The position numbers and the translations under genes were made by a program. This document shows positions 1,632 through 14,544 of a stretch of DNA of 32,000 nucleotides, piece after piece; within the stretch, counting starts at the first letter, position 1; the number at the start of each line of letters is the position of its first letter. This stretch comes from Candidatus Jordarchaeales archaeon (GTDB lineage Archaea; Asgardarchaeota; Jordiarchaeia; Jordiarchaeales; Freyrarchaeaceae): positions 16,279-48,278 of the forward strand of contig JAWCFL010000014.1 of the NCBI GenBank assembly GCA_038858525.1. Reading direction: 5' to 3'. The notes under the pieces were generated by a model. That model worked only from the letters and a program-made list of their open reading frames with translations. It did not search any database and was not told where the DNA came from.

Positions 1632-2867
1632 ATGGTTTTGAGGGCTCTTCACGTAATAGTTCCTCGAGAGAGAGCTGATGAGATCTTGAACATGCTAGGG
1701 GAAGAAGGATGGGTGCACTCGTATGTTTCAGGCGTGGACAACACGTTCATCATAATTGAAGCAGGCGTTAGAGAAATAGAGGAAGTAATGGAGCATCTGA
1801 AAGCAATAGGGGTCGGAAGAGAATATGGTTCAATATATCTGATGTCACCCCTCACCTCCTTACCTCAGCCTCGGAAACGTAAAGAGCTCCTGCTGGAGAG
1901 AGCCTCTAAGGACGAAATACTTTCTGTAATTGAAAGATCTGGAAAGCTGAGCGGAAACTACCTTGTCCTCATACTTCTATCAGCGATCCTCGCCGCTCTC
2001 GGGCTTCTAGCAAATAACGTTATAGTAGTAATAGGGTCCACGTTAGTCTCCCCCCTCATGGGACCCATAACTACTACAGCGATAGGAACGGTAATGAGCG
2101 ATAGGCAATTATTCAAAGACGGGGTTAAAGCGGAGCTGGTAGGGATCGGACTTTCAGTACTTATAGGGTTTCTCCTGACAAAGATGTTTCCAGGCGCTTC
2201 CCCGACAACTGAAATCCTGTCTGTAGCTCAGCTAACGCTAGCTGAGTTCGTCCTAGCAATAATTTCTGGTCTTGCCGCTGCTGTTTGCCTAACTGGCGGA
2301 ATAGAAGCGGCCCTAGTCGGCGTCGCCATAGCAGCTTCCCTTCTGCCTCCAGCCGCAAACGTAGGAATAGGTTTAGGGCTTGGAAATCCAGCGATACTCT
2401 TCGGCTCAGTCTTCCTGCTTCTAATAAACATTTTTAGTATAAACTTGGCTTGCACCTTAATGTTTTGGGTTCAAGGGATAAGGCCGCTTGTGACGCGCAG
2501 ACGAATGGTTGCAGTTAGAGTTATAAGAAGACGAGCAATAGCGGTCTTTTTAGCTCTCCTCGCGCTCTCCATACCCGTCATAATCACGACGCAAGGAATA
2601 TATGCCCAAACACAAGTCACCCCCGCAGCGACTCTGGCAACATACTCGCAAGCATGGTCTGCTAAAGCAGTCGTTTCATCTCTCAACGTAATCTATGAGA
2701 GAAACAGCAACATCGCTATAGTGCAGGCAACTATTTATTCTGATGAACCAATAAGCTCCGACATCGCTTTGAAGATTAGTGCCATAACAACCTTTGCCTC
2801 CAGAATACCAACGATAACGATAATACACGTGATTCAAGTAAACTCGATTATTTTGCTCTTAGGATAA
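1632..2867 (+). CDS. TIGR00341/DUF389 family multi-pass membrane protein
   Basis: Motifs VVIGSTLVSPLMGPI, LAIISGLAAA, GVAIAASLLPPAANVGIGL and LLLINIFSINLA. Start placed at ATG 1632 (SD GAGGT at 1621-1625); the ORF track starts at 1617. Confidence 0.88.
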   Translation: MVLRALHVIVPRERADEILNMLGEEGWVHSYVSGVDNTFIIIEAGVREIEEVMEHLKAIGVGREYGSIYLMSPLTSLPQPRKRKELLLERASKDEILSVIERSGKLSGNYLVLILLSAILAALGLLANNVIVVIGSTLVSPLMGPITTTAIGTVMSDRQLFKDGVKAELVGIGLSVLIGFLLTKMFPGASPTTEILSVAQLTLAEFVLAIISGLAAAVCLTGGIEAALVGVAIAASLLPPAANVGIGLGLGNPAILFGSVFLLLINIFSINLACTLMFWVQGIRPLVTRRRMVAVRVIRRRAIAVFLALLALSIPVIITTQGIYAQTQVTPAATLATYSQAWSAKAVVSSLNVIYERNSNIAIVQATIYSDEPISSDIALKISAITTFASRIPTITIIHVIQVNSIILLLG

Positions 2868-2875
2868 CTGTGAAA

Positions 2876-4693
2876 TTAAGGGCTTTCTTCACCTTCATCA
2901 TGCCTTTCCTCAATGTAGTAGTACATCGATTTCGCTTTTTGCATCTTGTCTAAGCGTGACCCCTCCTTATTCACGCGTGGCCGTCCTGTTCTATAATCTC
3001 TTCTGAAGGTAATGTTCATCCGTTCAAGGAACCTATTCATTCCTGTTTTCAAATCGACGGGCCTGTGAGCTATCCCTTGCACTCCCGGCTTCCCTGTGAA
3101 CACCATCAGCGAGTCTGATATGACGTCGACGAGTACTATGTCGTGTTCGACTACGAAGGCGGCTGCCTCAGACTTCTCAATGACCCGCCTAACTACGCGT
3201 GCCATGTTAAGCCTTTGCTCTGACGACAGGAATGCGCTTGGCTCATCGATGAGGTAAACATCTGCTTCCCTTGCTAGGCATGCTGCTATCGCTACACGCT
3301 GAAGTTCACCGCCACTGAGATTTTTGATCTCCCTGTCTAAGAGAGGCGTTACTTCTAATGGCTCTAAAACTGCTGTTTTGAAGTCGCTTGAGAAAACCTT
3401 CTTTCCTTCAGTCTCCTGTAAGAAAGCTTGAACCGTTCCGTCATAAGTTGCCTTCAAGTACTGAGGTTTATAGCTAACTTTAAGTGTCTGTGGAGGCATG
3501 CTTCCAGCGTCCGGCTTTAGTATTCCCGCGATAAGCTTGACAAACGTGGTCTTTCCAATGCCGTTTGGCCCTATTATGCCAATAACCTCCCCCTTGTGTG
3601 CAGCTCCTCCTTCCACTCTGAGAGTGAACCCGTCGAGCCGCTTCTCCATCTCACCAAAGGAAACTATTACTTTTTCGCTAACCCACTTCTCGGCGGGAAC
3701 GGGATTTACGTGGAACCTTATAGCTTCGCTCCTAAACCTTAAGTTCTCGTCGGGCAAATACCCGTCTAAGTAAATGTTTATTCCCTCCCTGACACTATGA
3801 GGATGAGTAACTACGCCGTAGACTCCGGGCTCACCGTAAAACATGCATACGACGTCACTCAAGTAGTCAGCTAGGGCTAAGTCATGCTCGACGCATATGA
3901 CTGTTTTGCCATGATCGAGAAGCCGCCTTATGACGCGGGCTGCATTAAGCCGCTGGTAAATGTCAAGATAGCTCGACGGCTCATCAAACAGATAAACGTC
4001 AGCTTCACGGGAAACTGCAGCCGCTATAGCGACCCGTTGGAGCTCGCCCCCACTGAGGACTTCAAGTTCTCGTTCAAGAACAGCTTCGAGCTCAAGCTCC
4101 TTCACCAGTTCGCGCATAGTCCCTCTCTCATCGGCTCTCTCGAGAAGGTCTGCCACCACTCCCTTAACAACCTTTGGCAGTAGCGTAATGTTCTGAGGTT
4201 TATGGACGACTTTTAAGTCGCCGTTAGCCATCTTCTCAAAATAACCCTGAAGCTCGCTCCCCCTATAATACCTTATAATTTCATCCCAGTCTGGCGGGTT
4301 ATCAAAGCGGCCGAAGTTCGGCTTGATCTCTCCGCTAAGAATCCGCATAGCTGTTGTTTTTCCCACGCCATTTGGACCAATGAGTCCGGTAACCCTGCCA
4401 CTTTTAGGGATCGGTAAGCGGTAAAGCTTGAAGGAGTTGGGACCATACCTAAACGTCAGGTCCTCCTCGAGCTCCTCTGGAAGGTTAACTATGCGTATCG
4501 CTTTGAAGGGGCACTTCTTAACGCAGATGCCCTCTCCTTCACATAGAGACTCAGCTATCCTCGCTTTCCCCGTCTCCTCATCAAAGGTCACCGTCTCCTG
4601 TCTCATCCTCACTCCAGGACAAAACCTGTAGCATTCCTTTGAGCAATCGTTAGGCTTACATCTGCTCTTATCGATAACCGCCACTCTTACCAT
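2876..4693 (-). CDS. rli1: Ribosome recycling ATPase ABCE1/Rli1
   Basis: N-terminal Fe-S domain CX4CX3CX3CP...CX2(E)X2CX3CP. Two NBDs with Walker A GPNGVGKT and GPNGIGKT, signature LSGGELQR twice, Walker B DEPS twice, and the RRDYRTGRPRVNK hinge. Confidence 0.98.
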   Translation of the reverse strand: MVRVAVIDKSRCKPNDCSKECYRFCPGVRMRQETVTFDEETGKARIAESLCEGEGICVKKCPFKAIRIVNLPEELEEDLTFRYGPNSFKLYRLPIPKSGRVTGLIGPNGVGKTTAMRILSGEIKPNFGRFDNPPDWDEIIRYYRGSELQGYFEKMANGDLKVVHKPQNITLLPKVVKGVVADLLERADERGTMRELVKELELEAVLERELEVLSGGELQRVAIAAAVSREADVYLFDEPSSYLDIYQRLNAARVIRRLLDHGKTVICVEHDLALADYLSDVVCMFYGEPGVYGVVTHPHSVREGINIYLDGYLPDENLRFRSEAIRFHVNPVPAEKWVSEKVIVSFGEMEKRLDGFTLRVEGGAAHKGEVIGIIGPNGIGKTTFVKLIAGILKPDAGSMPPQTLKVSYKPQYLKATYDGTVQAFLQETEGKKVFSSDFKTAVLEPLEVTPLLDREIKNLSGGELQRVAIAACLAREADVYLIDEPSAFLSSEQRLNMARVVRRVIEKSEAAAFVVEHDIVLVDVISDSLMVFTGKPGVQGIAHRPVDLKTGMNRFLERMNITFRRDYRTGRPRVNKEGSRLDKMQKAKSMYYYIEERHDEGEESP

Positions 4694-5788: not shown

Positions 5789-6676
5789 TTACTTTATTGA
5801 GGCTACGCCTCGGATACTCATCCTCCGGACGAGGTCTAGAAAAGCAAGTGGGTCCTCGTGGAAACTTAGAACTTCCAGTAGCATTCTCTCCTCATATTTT
5901 TTCACTTCCTCTACTGCTTCCCTGCCGAAGAGTGACTCCGCCGCCCTCAGTGTCTCTTTCATTAAGGAGAACGTCTTATCGGCGTTTTCAGTTATAAATA
6001 CGAACAGCTTCTTGTAGCGCTCAACGTCTCTCTCTGGAAGGGACTTATAAAGGATGCCTATGACGCCAAAGGGAGTATGCTTCGACTTAGTGGAAATATA
6101 GATCAGTATTTCGTCGCTTGCCTCAACTACCTCTCCCAATGTTGTCTCCCACGAGTTAATGAGCCCAATAACGTTCACGTTTATGTTCACGTTTGACCAG
6201 AAGCGGCGGTTAACCCTATCGTACACTATGTAGCCCGCGACCCCCTCCGGTAGCTTCCTGGCTTCTCCGGGCATCTCTTTCCAAGTCATTTTTTCTAGAA
6301 TCGAGATAACCTGCTCCCTGAACTTTGAGAAACGCTCCACACTACCATCCCATTCTTCTAGATGATAGGCCGTCTCGAAAGCCCACGCTATTTCAACTGC
6401 AAAGCGCTTGTAATAGTCAACATCGTCCCCATGATCTAACAGCAAAACAACGAGAACATGTCTAAGTGAGGCGACAAGAAAAATAGCATCTGTCGTCTTA
6501 AATGAGCTGAATTCTCCTATTTTTAGCTCCTCAGCAAGTCCTTCTAACGCCCTCAACATACCGCTAAGAAGAACGTCGTCAGAGATTACCTTTGAACGTT
6601 CAAGATCAACAACCAAGAGGGGAACACCAGAAATCCTATGAATCACCAAGACCTTTCTTATCATACCGAGGACCAA
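5789..6676 (-). CDS. Longin-domain protein with a second alpha/beta domain (possibly a second longin/roadblock)
   Basis: N-terminus VLVIHRISGVPLL...DDVLLSGMLRALEGLAEEL...EFSSFKT...VLVVLL...IAWAFETAY...WDGSVERFSKFREQVISIL matches the pattern of Asgard longin domains. The start may be ATG 6664. Confidence 0.72.
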   Translation of the reverse strand: MVLGMIRKVLVIHRISGVPLLVVDLERSKVISDDVLLSGMLRALEGLAEELKIGEFSSFKTTDAIFLVASLRHVLVVLLLDHGDDVDYYKRFAVEIAWAFETAYHLEEWDGSVERFSKFREQVISILEKMTWKEMPGEARKLPEGVAGYIVYDRVNRRFWSNVNINVNVIGLINSWETTLGEVVEASDEILIYISTKSKHTPFGVIGILYKSLPERDVERYKKLFVFITENADKTFSLMKETLRAAESLFGREAVEEVKKYEERMLLEVLSFHEDPLAFLDLVRRMSIRGVASIK

Positions 6677-6780: not shown

Positions 6781-7398
6781 CTAGAAAAATATGAATGGCT
6801 CTAATTTTCCTTTAAAATAACGTTTCATAACCTTCTTTATCCTTTTCTCGTCGATCATCTTTCTGTATCCTAGCTTTCTTAACTTTTCCTCCCATTTCAC
6901 TTGTTCCGGTGGCACCTCGCTTGGCGCCACTTTTTTAGGGTAAGCGAAAAAGTAATGTCGCTTTCTGGGGTCATAGTTAAAGTAAAAGAACCCTCCATCT
7001 TTGAAGAACACCGCTACAGAAGTGACAAGGTATTTTCCATGATAACCTGGATTGTTCACCAGCTTAAGTTCTTCCGCCATCTTCTTAAGGCGTTTATTCT
7101 CCTCCCATATTGTCTTCATCAGATCTGCTGTTTCATAAAGATCTTTAAGATAGAAGCGTAAAGTCTCTCCTTTATATTCTGTCACAGTGAATTTGGGAAC
7201 CCATCTATCCGTGACCGCCCCCTTGAAGTGAGGCTGCATAGGGGACTTAACAACGATCTCTATATGGTCTATATCTATCGCCTTGCGCCCTATATCTTCG
7301 TCTACGGGAATCCTGAACAAGTATTCCAGAATCTGAGCGAGTGACTGAGCCTCTTCCTCCTTAACTTCTCTTTCTGCCTCAATAGACAATTCATTCAC
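6781..7398 (-). CDS. Hypothetical protein (205 aa)
   Basis: Long ORF with ATG start and protein-like composition; no family recognised. Confidence 0.65.
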   Translation of the reverse strand: MNELSIEAEREVKEEEAQSLAQILEYLFRIPVDEDIGRKAIDIDHIEIVVKSPMQPHFKGAVTDRWVPKFTVTEYKGETLRFYLKDLYETADLMKTIWEENKRLKKMAEELKLVNNPGYHGKYLVTSVAVFFKDGGFFYFNYDPRKRHYFFAYPKKVAPSEVPPEQVKWEEKLRKLGYRKMIDEKRIKKVMKRYFKGKLEPFIFF

Positions 7399-10679: not shown

Positions 10680-10768
10680 CTTCCTAAAGGCATCAAAAGC
10701 ACAGACCTCCTACTTTAATAAGAGGTCTTCCCCTAAAAATAAATCGGTTGAAAAGGAGGGAAGACTGC

Positions 10769-11449
10769 TTGAAGGAAGGCGAATACGCAGTCTTCAAGTG
10801 TCCTAACTGTGGCTGTTACACGTTTGCTCCAACATCTCAGAAAAGCAGGTTCTGCTCCATGTGCGGAAAAATAGTTAAAGTAGACTTGCTTCATGCCGAA
10901 ATAACAAATGATGCCAGAAGGGCGAGTGAGCTGGTTAGATCCCGCAACGCTAAAAAAGCCCCTCCAGAACTGAAAAAAGCTCTCAGAGAGAGTTTCACCG
11001 AAGCTGAGAAGAAAACACCGAAAAAAGGAGCTAGAACCTCATCCCTACTTATGAAAATCCTTATGGAACACTGTTCCGAGGAGGTAACTCTAGATGAGCT
11101 GGAAAAACTGTGCACAGACTACGGATTAGACTGTGAATGGGTTAAGGAGAAACTGCCACAACTGGCACTAAAAGGTGTAGTGTTCTTCCCTTCACCTTGG
11201 ACCGTTAAATGCACAGCTCCCTCGCTCCACAGGCCAGAGAACCAATCCGAAGAAGTGTCAAGTCAAACCACTAACTTAAACAAGTTAGTGATAGACGCTT
11301 TCTCGGTGCCGACTTCCAGAGTGAAAGTTGTTGAGTGGTTCGCCGAGAAAGGATACTCTCCAGAGAAAGTGGATGAAATCATCGACAAACTGCACAGAAG
11401 CGGTCTCATAATAGAAGAGAAGCCCGGGATATTTAAAAAAGTCGAATAG
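10769..11449 (+). CDS. DUF1922-like Zn-ribbon protein with two C-terminal winged-helix domains
   Basis: YAVFKCPNCG...RFCSMCGK...ARRASELVRSRN (DUF1922-like). Two wH-like repeats: LDCEWVKEKLPQLALKGVVFFPSP and YSPEKVDEIIDKLHRSGLIIEEKPG. Start at TTG 10769 after GGAGG; the ORF track starts at 10748. Confidence 0.65.
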   Translation: MKEGEYAVFKCPNCGCYTFAPTSQKSRFCSMCGKIVKVDLLHAEITNDARRASELVRSRNAKKAPPELKKALRESFTEAEKKTPKKGARTSSLLMKILMEHCSEEVTLDELEKLCTDYGLDCEWVKEKLPQLALKGVVFFPSPWTVKCTAPSLHRPENQSEEVSSQTTNLNKLVIDAFSVPTSRVKVVEWFAEKGYSPEKVDEIIDKLHRSGLIIEEKPGIFKKVE

Positions 11450-11455
11450 CCCTTT

Positions 11456-12130
11456 TTACTCCCTAAGGAACCTAGGCTTCGGCTTAACGGGCTTAAAGTG
11501 TTCCCCAAACTTCTCAGCTAGCCTTAAAGCGGCGACAAGCTTATTCTCAGTTGGTGTAAAGGAGTAAATAAGATGCGGCTTTTCACCCCTCAGCGAAACC
11601 CTAATTATCACATCGTTTAATCTCTCAACCTCATCTTGAATATCACCCTCAAGAAGTGATGATGCCGCCTCACTGTCTGACGCCCACACTTCTAGTCTGC
11701 CGATTACTGCAACTTTCTTCATCTTCTCATTTAAGCCATCTTTCTCTGGTCTGATTATCTCCATCGAGAAACGCGGTCTCGCTTTGAAGTTCGCTTCGCA
11801 AAGGAAAACATCATCGTGAGGCTTGAACTTAGATACTATGTGGTGTAACAAGTTCTCTCTGTTCACAAGGTAGAGAGTGATATCCAAGCTCTCCAGAGGA
11901 GCATCATTAGACTTGCACCTTACTTTAAACCCGCTGAGCCTATACCTCCTCTTCTCAATCACCCTGAACCTCTCTCTAACCCACTCATTAACCAGAGTAT
12001 AGTATTTTTCCAGAAGAACCTTATTCTTCCTCAATCCTAACGAGTAAGACACGATAAATGCTAACATAAAGGCGAAAAGCAAAATCGCCCCCAAAGTTCC
12101 TATGAAATCGATAGTCCCCGACGTGGACAA
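11456..12130 (-). CDS. Single-pass membrane protein, CCDC47/DUF1682 (PAT complex subunit)-like
   Basis: N-terminal TM helix followed by G-x2-KN, then F...SGFKVRC...LDITLYLVNRENLL...KPHDDVF, colinear with the recalled CCDC47 core. TTG start with GGGGTG SD. Confidence 0.55.
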   Translation of the reverse strand: MSTSGTIDFIGTLGAILLFAFMLAFIVSYSLGLRKNKVLLEKYYTLVNEWVRERFRVIEKRRYRLSGFKVRCKSNDAPLESLDITLYLVNRENLLHHIVSKFKPHDDVFLCEANFKARPRFSMEIIRPEKDGLNEKMKKVAVIGRLEVWASDSEAASSLLEGDIQDEVERLNDVIIRVSLRGEKPHLIYSFTPTENKLVAALRLAEKFGEHFKPVKPKPRFLRE

Positions 12131-12145
12131 CGCGACACCCCAAAT

Positions 12146-12892
12146 TTAATCTATAACCTTCCCAGTAAATGGATTCATTTTTTTCTTACAGACAGGGCAA
12201 GCAAGCATTCCCGGCTTCCACTTTATCCACTCACCGCAGGCAGGACACATTAATTCGAGTTCCCCCTCCACATCTAATTCTGGCGGAATTTTCAGAAGCT
12301 CTTCTTCCTCTTTTTTTATCTTTTCCTCCTTTTTCTTCCTAACGGATTCAGACACACCGAAGCTTACCTGCCTAGCACCCCGCTTGCCCCCCGTCTTCCC
12401 CCTTCCCTCATCTGGATTTATCACTTCAAGTATCCTACCGAACACCCCCTGATGCCTTCTCTCCTCTCTTTTTTCCTGTGGGATTTCGGGGGACTGAGCA
12501 CTCCTCTTAAATTCCTCCACTAGAAGGATTATACGACCAATCTGTGACTCTGCAAGTCCCTTAATGATCACCTTGTTGCAACTCAGGCTCGAGAAGCGGC
12601 TGTCTACGTGATACTCCAACTCAAGCTCCTTAGAGTCCCTCTGAGCCCTAACATCACCCACATTCTCCAAGAAGAAACTCAGAGCGGCGACCTCTCTTCC
12701 GCCCCTTTTAAGGTTCTTCGCGAAGGATGCAGGCTTACCGTGGAATATCAAGCGAATGTTAGTCACGTAAAGACTACCCTCCTCCGTTTCCCGTCCTTCT
12801 CCATCCCCAATTTTAACTCCCTCGGAACTCAACAAAACTTTTTCCCCACGCATGAGGTGAGGAAACTCGCTTCCCTCTATCAACAAAGCCAC
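12146..12892 (-). CDS. GLUE/GRAM-type PH-domain protein with C-terminal CxxC-x12-CxxC Zn ribbon
   Basis: LMRGEKVLLSSEGVKIGDGE...GSLYVTNIRLIF matches the GLUE/GRAM beta-strand signature. A charged linker follows, then CPACG...CPVCK. Confidence 0.6.
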   Translation of the reverse strand: MALLIEGSEFPHLMRGEKVLLSSEGVKIGDGEGRETEEGSLYVTNIRLIFHGKPASFAKNLKRGGREVAALSFFLENVGDVRAQRDSKELELEYHVDSRFSSLSCNKVIIKGLAESQIGRIILLVEEFKRSAQSPEIPQEKREERRHQGVFGRILEVINPDEGRGKTGGKRGARQVSFGVSESVRKKKEEKIKKEEEELLKIPPELDVEGELELMCPACGEWIKWKPGMLACPVCKKKMNPFTGKVID

Positions 12893-13072
12893 CCGTTCAT
12901 GTTCTCAAGTCTAAATGCCAAGAAACAAAATATAAAGTTAGAGTTTCAAACATTAAATTCTGCTAGCCTTTACACGCAAAATCTAATCTAACGCAACAGT
13001 AAACTACAGTTAACAAAGCAATTAAAGTCGCTCTTCCCCTTACTAGAATGGGCTTCCCTCTGAAACTTTCCC

Positions 13073-13852
13073 CTATTGTGTAACGCTTAACATTTTGCCT
13101 GGCCACTTTGTCTTTAGAATCTTAATTTTTAACGGCTCTTCCACGTACAAGGTTACGCTGTGGTTTTCCATTATAAATCGCCTGTTTATCTCGTTGATCG
13201 TGCTTCCGTTATACATGCAGACACAAACCGTCTTCTTAAGCTTAGTTTTATCAATTTGCTCCTCGAAAAAGAATGGTTTTGTTGCGCGTCTTCGTGACCT
13301 CAAATACGAAGCATTGTCAAAGGTAATCAGTAACCCTTGAAATCCTCGTTCAAGCGAGTTCCTTTCAAGCCTCGCAACCTCTTCCACCTGATAGTGAACG
13401 CTTGGATGAGCGTCATAAAAGGAGCCTAGGTCTCCAAGCAGAACCCCTTGGCCTTCAACGTTAACTCTAGGCTCCCCAAGAACCATCTGAACACACATAT
13501 ACCCTTTCTCAAGAGCATCAATGATAAGGTGCCTAAGAAGCAACTCCACTCCCCTAGACTCCCCTAGAAGAGCCACGTGACTGGGAGGAATCAAACCCCC
13601 CTTCAACATTAAGTCAACATCATCTAGCCTTGTCTGAACCGTATATGGGAGACTTCTCGCGATCTCCTTCAACTTCTCACATATAACCACATAAAGGCCT
13701 GAACCAAGTTCATCACACCAGTAACCACAACATATAGGGACAGAGCCATCAAGCATGCATCTTGACGCTTTCCCCTCAGCCTGAACCCAGAACCTACAAG
13801 GCTTATTAGGCGAAAACCTGAGATACCTCACTAGGAAATCCCAGTTACTCAA
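13073..13852 (-). CDS. Inactive KaiC/RecA-fold (MEDS-like) domain with N-terminal Cys-rich module
   Basis: QTRLDDVDLMLKGGLIPPSHVALLGESRG resembles the KaiC N-terminus but has no GKT. The C-terminus RGFQGLLITFD...FEEQID...VCVCMYN...NH resembles MEDS. There are six Cys in residues 19-58. TTG start with GGAGG. Confidence 0.55.
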   Translation of the reverse strand: MSNWDFLVRYLRFSPNKPCRFWVQAEGKASRCMLDGSVPICCGYWCDELGSGLYVVICEKLKEIARSLPYTVQTRLDDVDLMLKGGLIPPSHVALLGESRGVELLLRHLIIDALEKGYMCVQMVLGEPRVNVEGQGVLLGDLGSFYDAHPSVHYQVEEVARLERNSLERGFQGLLITFDNASYLRSRRRATKPFFFEEQIDKTKLKKTVCVCMYNGSTINEINRRFIMENHSVTLYVEEPLKIKILKTKWPGKMLSVTQ

Positions 13853-14139: not shown

Positions 14140-14544
14140 TTGGGCTTCCTGTCCAGAGAGAAAAAGCGGCTTTCTACAGTTAAAATTAGGAGGGCGCTTG
14201 TTGATGGTTTACTTGAAGTTTCAAGGGAAGTCCATCCTAGAGAATTTATCGGTTTACTGAGAGCAGAGAGGGGAGTTATATCCGAGGTAATTATACCCCC
14301 ATTCAGCATTTATGGTCTGGGTGAATCGTCGTTTTCGCCATATGATCTCCCGATAGACCCCTCATTGGTTGGCAGCGTCCACAGCCATCCATCAGGAGAC
14401 CCGCGCCCATCAAAACAAGACGTGAACGTAGCATTCAGTTTTGGATTCGTACACCTTATAATCACATATCCCTACTCCTGCCATGAGAACATATACGCCT
14501 ATGACAAAGAGGGAAAACCACTAAAACTCATAATAATCGAATAA
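14140..14544 (+). CDS. JAMM/MPN+ (Mov34/PAD-1) metalloprotease
   Basis: Catalytic Glu in HPREFIGLL and an intact HSHPSGDPRPSKQD (HxH-x7-S-x2-D) motif. Confidence 0.93.
   Translation: MGFLSREKKRLSTVKIRRALVDGLLEVSREVHPREFIGLLRAERGVISEVIIPPFSIYGLGESSFSPYDLPIDPSLVGSVHSHPSGDPRPSKQDVNVAFSFGFVHLIITYPYSCHENIYAYDKEGKPLKLIIIE

Follow-up and report, generated by a model that had tools for sequence, protein, structure and literature searches.

The 32,000-nucleotide window analysed here, from the genome of a Candidatus Jordarchaeales archaeon (contig JAWCFL010000014.1, positions 16,279 to 48,278, assembly GCA_038858525.1), has the gene content of an archaeal housekeeping region (ABCE1, Rpr2, Nep1, S19e, L31e, eIF6, prefoldin, FtsY). 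It also carries a small reverse-strand gene, referred to below as PH-Znr, whose product is predicted to join a PH domain of the GLUE/GRAM class to a C-terminal zinc ribbon through a long charged linker. An initial annotation, made from the sequence alone, had described this product as a stand-alone GLUE/GRAM domain with a zinc finger, reminiscent of the N-terminus of Vps36, and had envisaged it as the GLUE module of ESCRT-II in the form of a separate archaeal protein. Here, we describe using profile and fold searches, structure modelling and a survey, in six reading frames, of 400 Asgard genomes that PH-Znr belongs to a small, conserved family, and we weigh what this protein may do.

The PH-Znr gene and its three-part product

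The open reading frame at 12146-12892 is present on the reverse strand, and the peptide quoted in the initial annotation corresponds to its residues 12-50. PH-Znr is a real, conserved gene rather than a chance open reading frame, because homologues at 23-90 % identity over the full length have the same architecture, and it is single-copy in this genome. Translation from GTG 12892 gives 248 residues, but the true start is probably TTG 12883 (245 residues), since close relatives and a 245-residue cluster member start three codons later, with M-I-E-G-S-E-F, and a GGGTG element lies just 5' of this TTG. The features of the gene are as follows.

12146..12892, reverse strand: PH-Znr gene, 248 residues from GTG 12892, 245 residues from TTG 12883 more likely (open reading frame list, translation, full-length homologues)
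12497..12868, reverse strand: predicted GLUE/GRAM-class PH domain, residues ~9-132 (AlphaFold2 model, Foldseek, VIA-align, top Pfam match PF11605)
12743..12778, reverse strand: GRAM-type core motif G-x-L-Y-V-T-N-x-R-L-I-F, residues 39-50 (alignment and HMMER)
12257..12496, reverse strand: disordered linker, about 40-45 % charged, residues 133-212, ~80 residues (model confidence and composition)
12404..12448, reverse strand: conserved short linker motif ...R-I-L-E-V-I-N-P-D-E-G, residues 149-163 (two alignments)
12149..12256, reverse strand: C-terminal C4 zinc ribbon C-P-x-C-G-x6-P-G-M-x2-C-P-x-C, residues 213-248 (alignment, model, Pfam)
12927..12936, reverse strand: TATA-box-like TTTATATTTT, ~40 nt upstream of the PH-Znr start (sequence pattern only)

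The structure model was built with AlphaFold2 on the PH-Znr family alignment, and all conservation counts rest on an alignment of 14 family sequences. In the model, the PH part consists of seven strands and a C-terminal helix (residues ~18-132) at a predicted local distance difference test score (pLDDT) of 80-88. Within this part G39, Y42, T44, R47 and F50 are invariant, as are P11 and E17, and HMMER places the motif at residues 39-50 on the corresponding strand of yeast Vps36 and of BBS5. Residues 134-186 are disordered (pLDDT < 50) and are followed by a helix (182-199) and by two beta-hairpins with four cysteines. Across the family, the linker varies from 44 to 93 residues, of which about 40-57 % are charged. 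The closest relatives from the Jord and Frey lineages retain its short motif (residues 149-163), more distant Frey-type members retain it in part, and Hel-type members lack it.

The C-terminal CxxC-x12-CxxC pattern reads as had been annotated (C216-x2-C219-x12-C232-x2-C235), and with two conserved C-x2-C knuckles placed on beta-hairpins (strands 212-215, 222-225, 238-240 and 245-247) the C-terminus has the characteristics of a C4 zinc ribbon. Residues C216, P217, C219, G220, P227, G228, C232, P233 and C235 are invariant in the alignment, and sub-threshold Pfam matches to Zn_ribbon_3/DZR occur in 14/14 members. The ribbon is not an NZF, in agreement with the remark in the initial annotation that the finger lacks the Trp/Asn consensus: it reads C-P-A-C-x12-C-P-V-C, without a Trp before the first Cys, without the conserved Asn and with a spacing of x12 instead of x10, which departs from the NZF/RanBP2 pattern W-x-C-x2-C-x3-N-x6-C-x2-C with its T-F/hydrophobic dipeptide for ubiquitin binding, and a Pfam search gave no match to PF00641. 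The ribbon profile also matched open reading frames of 512-517 and 229 residues in another Asgard family, but these are actin-like proteins with inserted ribbons and a transmembrane protein, and we treat the matches as generic ribbon similarity from which nothing about ESCRT follows. The gene at L040:4555-6093 (-), in another Asgard genome, encodes a 512-residue actin-like protein with tandem zinc ribbons inserted near its C-terminal third.

What might the PH domain bind? A conserved basic lipid-binding loop was considered as a family feature and rejected, as one subgroup carries an acidic loop. Across the family, no conservation is seen for the basic loop that follows the GRAM strand, and the net charge of the PH domain ranges from -6 to +9; therefore a protein ligand seems likelier than a conserved lipid pocket.

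Class of the PH domain and distribution of the family

The class of the PH domain was assessed by sequence profiles and by fold. The top Pfam match of PH-Znr is Vps36_ESCRT-II (PF11605; E 3.9e-4), at 21.0 bits, below the family cut-off of 24.1 bits and confined to the N-terminal half of the Pfam model. The same model is matched at E <= 1 by 14/14 family members, two of which score above the cut-off (P0013, 29.9 bits; P0011, 24.9 bits). For GRAM (PF02893, cut-off 23.6 bits) PH-Znr gives E 0.23, and 13/14 members match with a best value of 6e-4 (20.1 bits), none above the cut-off; the BBS5 model (BBL5) is weakly matched by 6 of 14 members. Searches against the PDB with the single PH-Znr sequence gave no match, and profile searches gave borderline values for BBS5 (0.007-0.018) and yeast Vps36 (0.024).

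The fold comparisons point in the same direction. Foldseek against the PDB places the GLUE domains of human EAP45 (2hth_B, 2.4e-5) and yeast Vps36 (2cay_A, 3.1e-5) on top, followed by the Lam6 PH domain, BBS5 and MTMR2 with other PH-fold entries interspersed. VIA-align, an independent search of 48,161 chains with a second look, in which rows within 1 Z count as tied, gives GLUE domains at ranks 1-3 (2cay_B, Z 12.2, root-mean-square deviation 3.2 over 111 aligned residues; 2dx5_A, 11.7; 2hth_B, 11.6). The eight entries right below these are all GRAM or BBS5, among them Lam6 (11.6), five myotubularin entries (11.4-10.9) and BBS5 (10.8), and generic PH domains reach at most 10.8; the PH domains of RanBD and Exo84 appear in the fold-match lists at Z ~10. 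The modelled PH domain is thus of the GLUE/GRAM class, with GLUE nominally first and statistically tied with GRAM and BBS5, because the Z differences (12.2 versus 11.6-10.8) lie within 1. The likeness to Vps36 seen in the initial annotation holds in that GLUE comes first by Pfam, Foldseek and VIA-align, and falls short in that its lead over GRAM and BBS5 is less than 1 Z. A best match to bacterial PH (bPH) domains, or the absence of a predicted PH fold, would have spoken against the annotation, and neither occurs: at E <= 1, no bPH family (bPH_1-6, e.g. PF14470, PF03703) is matched by PH-Znr or by the six relatives shown individually, or found among the 25 families that most members match. Taken as a whole, we hold this domain identity with high confidence.

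The family is small. A word-indexed search of 5.8 billion proteins gave eight relatives in total, and an exhaustive HMMER profile search of 1.8 billion representatives gave 11 proteins at E <= 0.001, the two weakest of which are long multi-stretch matches. The six-frame survey found full-length PH-Znr in 17/17 sampled genomes of five Asgard families (f1 4/4, f2 6/6, f15 3/3, f16 2/2, f17 2/2) and in no other family of the 400 Asgard genomes. All copies keep the three-part plan, at identities down to 23 %. As far as these searches reach, PH-Znr appears to be an Asgard-only family of Jord/Frey-type and Hel-type lineages.

Relation to ESCRT and to neighbouring genes

The GLUE domain of eukaryotic ESCRT-II binds membranes, PI3P and ubiquitin. 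PH-Znr might accordingly be read as a free-standing GLUE of Asgard ESCRT-II that acts in trans with the GLUE-less Vps22/Vps25, its PH domain reaching the membrane and/or ubiquitin and its ribbon binding the C-terminal domain of Vps28 like the NZF of yeast Vps36, so that it would resemble the unfused precursor of the Vps36 N-terminus; we consider this unlikely. The nominal lead of GLUE favours it, as does the gene complement of the genome, which encodes ubiquitin (contig C53) and, in an ESCRT-I/II operon on contig C3 (L007:10281-12481 -), UEV-Vps23 (253 residues), Vps28 (228 residues) and Vps22/EAP30 (249 residues). This Vps22 consists of EAP30/winged-helix domains only and lacks GLUE. PH-Znr itself contains no EAP30, in line with its description as a stand-alone protein, and no PH+EAP30 fusion was found in the six-frame survey or in a search for longer forms, the latter being weak evidence. 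Published work did not detect a GLUE domain on Asgard Vps22, nor a Vps36, and left open the routes by which ESCRT-I and -II get to membranes and to one another; according to Hatano et al., undetermined factors may bridge the two complexes in some Asgards (PMC9192718). Fungal Vps36 also joins a PH domain with zinc fingers (PMC10936438).

In addition, the PH domain has a relative in an ESCRT-linked Asgard protein. Makarova et al. 2024 proposed Znr_PH_CC_SB, which combines three N-terminal zinc ribbons, a PH domain, a coiled coil and a steadiness box and is encoded beside ESCRT-III, as an Asgard ESCRT-I component (PMC10936438). In the six-frame survey, the PH part of the PH-Znr profile matches open reading frames of 469-560 residues (one of 302) in another large Asgard family, plus a 501-residue one of the same genus, at E 1e-6 to 1e-8 per genome. 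Three of these and a 507-residue open reading frame of the present genome have a common plan of N-terminal zinc ribbons/B-box, coiled coil, PH domain and C-terminal hairpin, with weak Vps23_core/CdvA matches at the hairpin in both copies of this genus. A Snf7 gene adjoins 3/4 of the examined open reading frames, including that of this genome (G000:C54, L013:694-2214 (+)), which is convergent with a Snf7/ESCRT-III gene at 2320-2952 (-); the pairing also occurs in two other Asgard genomes (L028, L029). The PH domain of PH-Znr is homologous to the Znr_PH_CC_SB PH domain, and a paralogue of it, because hhalign relates the two profiles at 95.7 % probability and E 8.8e-9 over 94 PH columns.

Nonetheless, several observations stand against a role within ESCRT-II. 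No ESCRT gene lies next to PH-Znr in any of the Jord, Frey or Hel-type loci examined, and in this genome PH-Znr is on contig C14, apart from the ESCRT-I/II operon on C3 and from Snf7 on C54; action in trans as the GLUE module of ESCRT-II is not borne out by this context. For ESCRT-I/II a wide distribution across Asgards is reported (PMC9192718, PMC10936438), whereas PH-Znr occurs in five families only. In its ribbon, the Trp/Asn and the spacing of an NZF are missing, and GLUE leads GRAM by less than 1 Z unit. The premise of the initial annotation that Asgard Vps22/36 homologues are mainly winged-helix proteins is correct for the Vps22 found here but leaves out the PH-containing ESCRT component Znr_PH_CC_SB (PMC10936438). 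With its copy of that protein, this genome already has a PH-bearing putative ESCRT-I component. With Znr_PH_CC_SB, PH-Znr has only the PH domain in common: the steadiness box, the coiled coil, the N-terminal ribbons and the Snf7 neighbour are all absent. By profile comparison, the link of PH-Znr to ESCRT is thus one of ancestry without support from gene context, and PH-Znr is not a demonstrated ESCRT-II subunit. Beside the ESCRT operon on C3 lie a divergent 189-residue gene with a terminal zinc ribbon (L007:12696-13262) and a 336-residue open reading frame.

The closest neighbour of PH-Znr in the window is a membrane protein gene.

11456..12130, reverse strand: predicted CCDC47/TtfA-fold single-pass membrane protein, 224 residues, downstream of PH-Znr with a 15 nt gap after the stop (junction sequence, AlphaFold2, Foldseek, VIA-align, Pfam)

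A GGGGTG at 12136-12141 precedes this gene, and the two genes are probably co-transcribed, judging from their junction. In a single sediment metatranscriptome library, three short contigs at depth 4-6 cover parts of both genes, where DNA carry-over is possible. Three hot-spring metatranscriptomes, searched as raw reads, gave no reads here, which is evidence in neither direction. The model of the membrane protein (pLDDT 75.6) matches chains from three ribosome-translocon structures, taken to be CCDC47, and mycobacterial TtfA in Foldseek at 9.8e-8 (7tm3_4) to 5e-4, with the next entry at 0.06, and in VIA-align at Z 14.8 (7tut_4), 14.0 (TtfA) and 13.0 (9i78_4), followed by 8.3; a weak Pfam match to CCDC47 (E 0.0047) agrees with this, and a profile search of the PDB found no sequence match. 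We infer that chains 7tm3_4, 7tut_4, 6w6l_7 and 9i78_4 of the ribosome-translocon structures are CCDC47, because of the residue ranges of the chains, the independent Pfam match and published work (PMC7505659). CCDC47 has a globular cytosolic domain placed on the ribosome (PMC7505659).

PH-Znr and the CCDC47-like gene are adjacent in both f1 genera, even where the upstream flank is rearranged, and lie 1-5 kb apart in f2; the distribution of the linker motif at residues 149-163 runs parallel to that of this neighbour. Co-folding of PH-Znr with the cytosolic domain of the CCDC47-like protein (50-224) gave a score of 0.00 in a run without controls, which is evidence neither way. In other Asgard genomes, of lineages without PH-Znr, a CstA-type multipass transporter is encoded next to the CCDC47-like gene (L047:5840-7744, L052:6102-7916, L051:5297-7054 and L048:1731-3641), and three of these loci also encode a protein of ~200 residues. 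An identification of these ~600-residue neighbours as ABCE1 was rejected, as BLAST gave no match and Pfam assigns them to CstA transporters. By analogy, the CstA pairing would fit the role of CCDC47 with multipass proteins and that of TtfA with MmpL3, which is suggestive.

At 10748-11449 (+) of the window, a DUF1922 zinc ribbon is fused to a C-terminal winged helix (DUF5817_CT / MCM_WH matches); this gene lies on the opposite strand beside the pair in Jord and Frey and separates PH-Znr from the CCDC47-like gene in f2. The gene at 13073-13852 (-) encodes a KaiC/MEDS-like protein of 259 residues (weak MEDS match, E 0.021) and is oriented divergently to the Prok-JAB/JAMM gene at 14140-14544 (+). 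The idea of one quality-control locus of KaiC-like, JAMM and PH-Znr genes is not upheld, as the first two stay together but lie 5 kb from PH-Znr in Frey-type loci. For the conserved 295-residue protein encoded at 5789-6676 (-), Atlas features lead to clusters made up of Asgard members alone and give a weak roadblock/LAMTOR2/longin lead (0.85), and the adjoining 205-residue open reading frame at 6781-7398 gave no lead from Atlas features.

A different neighbour is found in Hel-type lineages, where an MglA/Arf-like small GTPase immediately adjoins PH-Znr in 4/6 loci from three families.

L002:10692-11258 (-), L039:7979-8542, L043:5615-6193, L044:1986-2468: Hel-type MglA/Arf-like GTPases, neighbours of PH-Znr

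These GTPases have degenerate motifs (GKNT, ASFFD, SVVGK) and Pfam matches to Ras/Arf/Gtr1. A second GTPase paralogue and a 568-residue actin homologue are also found near Hel-type PH-Znr genes. Could PH-Znr be a GTPase effector or regulator, with its PH domain reading the state of an MglA/Arf-like GTPase as Ran-binding domains and the Exo84 PH domain bind theirs? The adjacency, once co-directional, and the Pfam assignment speak for this, as do RanBD and Exo84 among the fold matches and the weak roadblock/longin lead of the 295-residue neighbour. We nevertheless find it rather improbable: the Hel-type pairs are mostly convergent and hence not operons, the closest GTPase homologues in this genome are on other contigs and unlinked to PH-Znr, and RanBD and Exo84 score below the GLUE/GRAM group.

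Taking context and architecture together, we propose that PH-Znr is a soluble, two-headed, membrane-proximal adaptor restricted to a few Asgard lineages, with putative partners, a reading for which we see roughly even chances. The PH head would dock on a membrane-proximal ligand, where contact with a protein surface of ubiquitin-like or GTPase-like kind seems likelier than use of a conserved pocket for anionic lipids. The tethered zinc ribbon would hold a second partner, such that PH-Znr may bridge two components on the cytoplasmic side of the membrane. In this genome and order, PH-Znr would most likely be made together with the CCDC47/TtfA-fold membrane protein and may act beside it, a step that we put forward tentatively and consider doubtful; in Hel-type lineages, the equivalent neighbour would be the MglA/Arf-like small GTPase. 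PH-Znr might then be part of an Asgard membrane-trafficking or biogenesis toolkit.

Several points weigh against this proposal. The neighbours differ between Jord/Frey and Hel-type lineages, and no single obligate partner explains the family. The CCDC47-like family is also present, beside the CstA transporter, in some ten further Asgard families that lack PH-Znr, and was undetected in the 7 Hel-type genomes sampled. Much of the Jord/Frey neighbourhood reflects conserved synteny of housekeeping genes in a single order, and the argument from adjacency is weaker for it; any binding partner of PH-Znr is a candidate only. Finally, the eukaryote-like flavour of PH-Znr is not exclusive, as Atlas fold and feature searches also give GRAM/bPH_3-like proteins of bacteria and archaea, along with a bacterial cluster that combines a PH domain with a zinc ribbon.

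The last of these points is also the basis for a further alternative. PH-Znr would then be a small GRAM/bPH-like prokaryotic protein of generic type that carries a zinc ribbon and acts outside eukaryote-like trafficking (e.g. in stress or regulation), its GLUE likeness reflecting only a shared, ancient GRAM-like PH scaffold. Language-model searches likewise return bacterial and archaeal hypothetical proteins, and the PH domains of Znr_PH_CC_SB proteins match bPH_3, GRAM and GLUE about equally weakly. This explanation seems improbable to us as well, given that those of the 11 HMMER matches with a named source are all Asgard (Jord/Frey/Hel), that bPH is seen only as weak Atlas feature leads (0.88) and in none of the Pfam results for the seven members shown individually, and that both conserved neighbours are proteins of eukaryote-signature type. 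Least probable, and a long shot in our view, is the bolder idea that PH-Znr is the surviving free-standing module whose fusion to a Vps22 paralogue made eukaryotic Vps36 and still serves as the in-trans membrane/ubiquitin/ESCRT-I arm of Asgard ESCRT-II, or that PH-Znr and the CCDC47-fold protein together make up an archaeal module close to the ribosome that serves in the biogenesis or quality control of membrane proteins.

Comparison with known systems

In eukaryotes, the CCDC47 fold is that of a ribosome-bound chaperone of multipass-membrane-protein insertion. Similar to CCDC47 of the PAT complex and multipass translocon, and to mycobacterial TtfA, the neighbour of PH-Znr is predicted to have one transmembrane helix and, after it, a globular cytosolic domain of the same fold. 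At 224 residues it differs from CCDC47 in having neither the luminal acidic domain nor the long C-terminal coiled coil. We know of no PH protein among the eukaryotic CCDC47 partners (PAT, GEL and BOS components), and our searches of the accessible literature found no link between CCDC47 and Asgard archaea. Through its conserved pairing with a membrane protein of CCDC47/TtfA fold, PH-Znr leads to a further candidate for a eukaryote-like component. If neither this link nor that to ESCRT were true, PH-Znr would be a lineage-specific adaptor of ordinary interest.

The domains of PH-Znr are known, as is a PH-bearing Asgard ESCRT protein; the stand-alone PH-plus-ribbon family and its neighbourhoods are new, and neither the literature searched nor the supplements of the ESCRT survey yielded an account of such an architecture. 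The GRAM-type PH domains of Lam6/Ltc1, MTMR2/6 and WBP2, and that of BBS5, belong to the same PH subclass (Z 11.6-10.8). Unlike PH-Znr, however, they sit in large eukaryotic lipid-transfer, phosphatase or coat proteins, and none is a stand-alone PH domain with a zinc ribbon.

The best structural and profile match, the GLUE domain of Vps36/EAP45 (PF11605; PDB 2cay, 2hth, 2dx5), has the GRAM-like PH fold, with P-x-L-x-x-G-E at the N-terminus and G-x-L/F-x-V/L-T-x-x-R-L/I-I in common with PH-Znr. In contrast to Vps36, PH-Znr is not fused to EAP30/winged-helix domains and has no ESCRT gene context, and its zinc module, a C4 ribbon, sits at the C-terminus behind a long tether, whereas the NZF of Vps36 is inserted in the PH domain. 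Znr_PH_CC_SB has a homologous PH domain, is likewise Asgard-specific and also combines PH with zinc ribbons, but is a protein of ~500-530 residues with multiple N-terminal ribbons, coiled coils, a C-terminal steadiness-box-like hairpin and Snf7 alongside, where PH-Znr has one ribbon at its C-terminus. The PH lineage of an ESCRT-linked Asgard protein therefore has another form as well, a small protein of its own that carries a zinc ribbon. PH-Znr provides a second candidate, and one that is easy to express, for the binding of lipids, ubiquitin and ESCRT.

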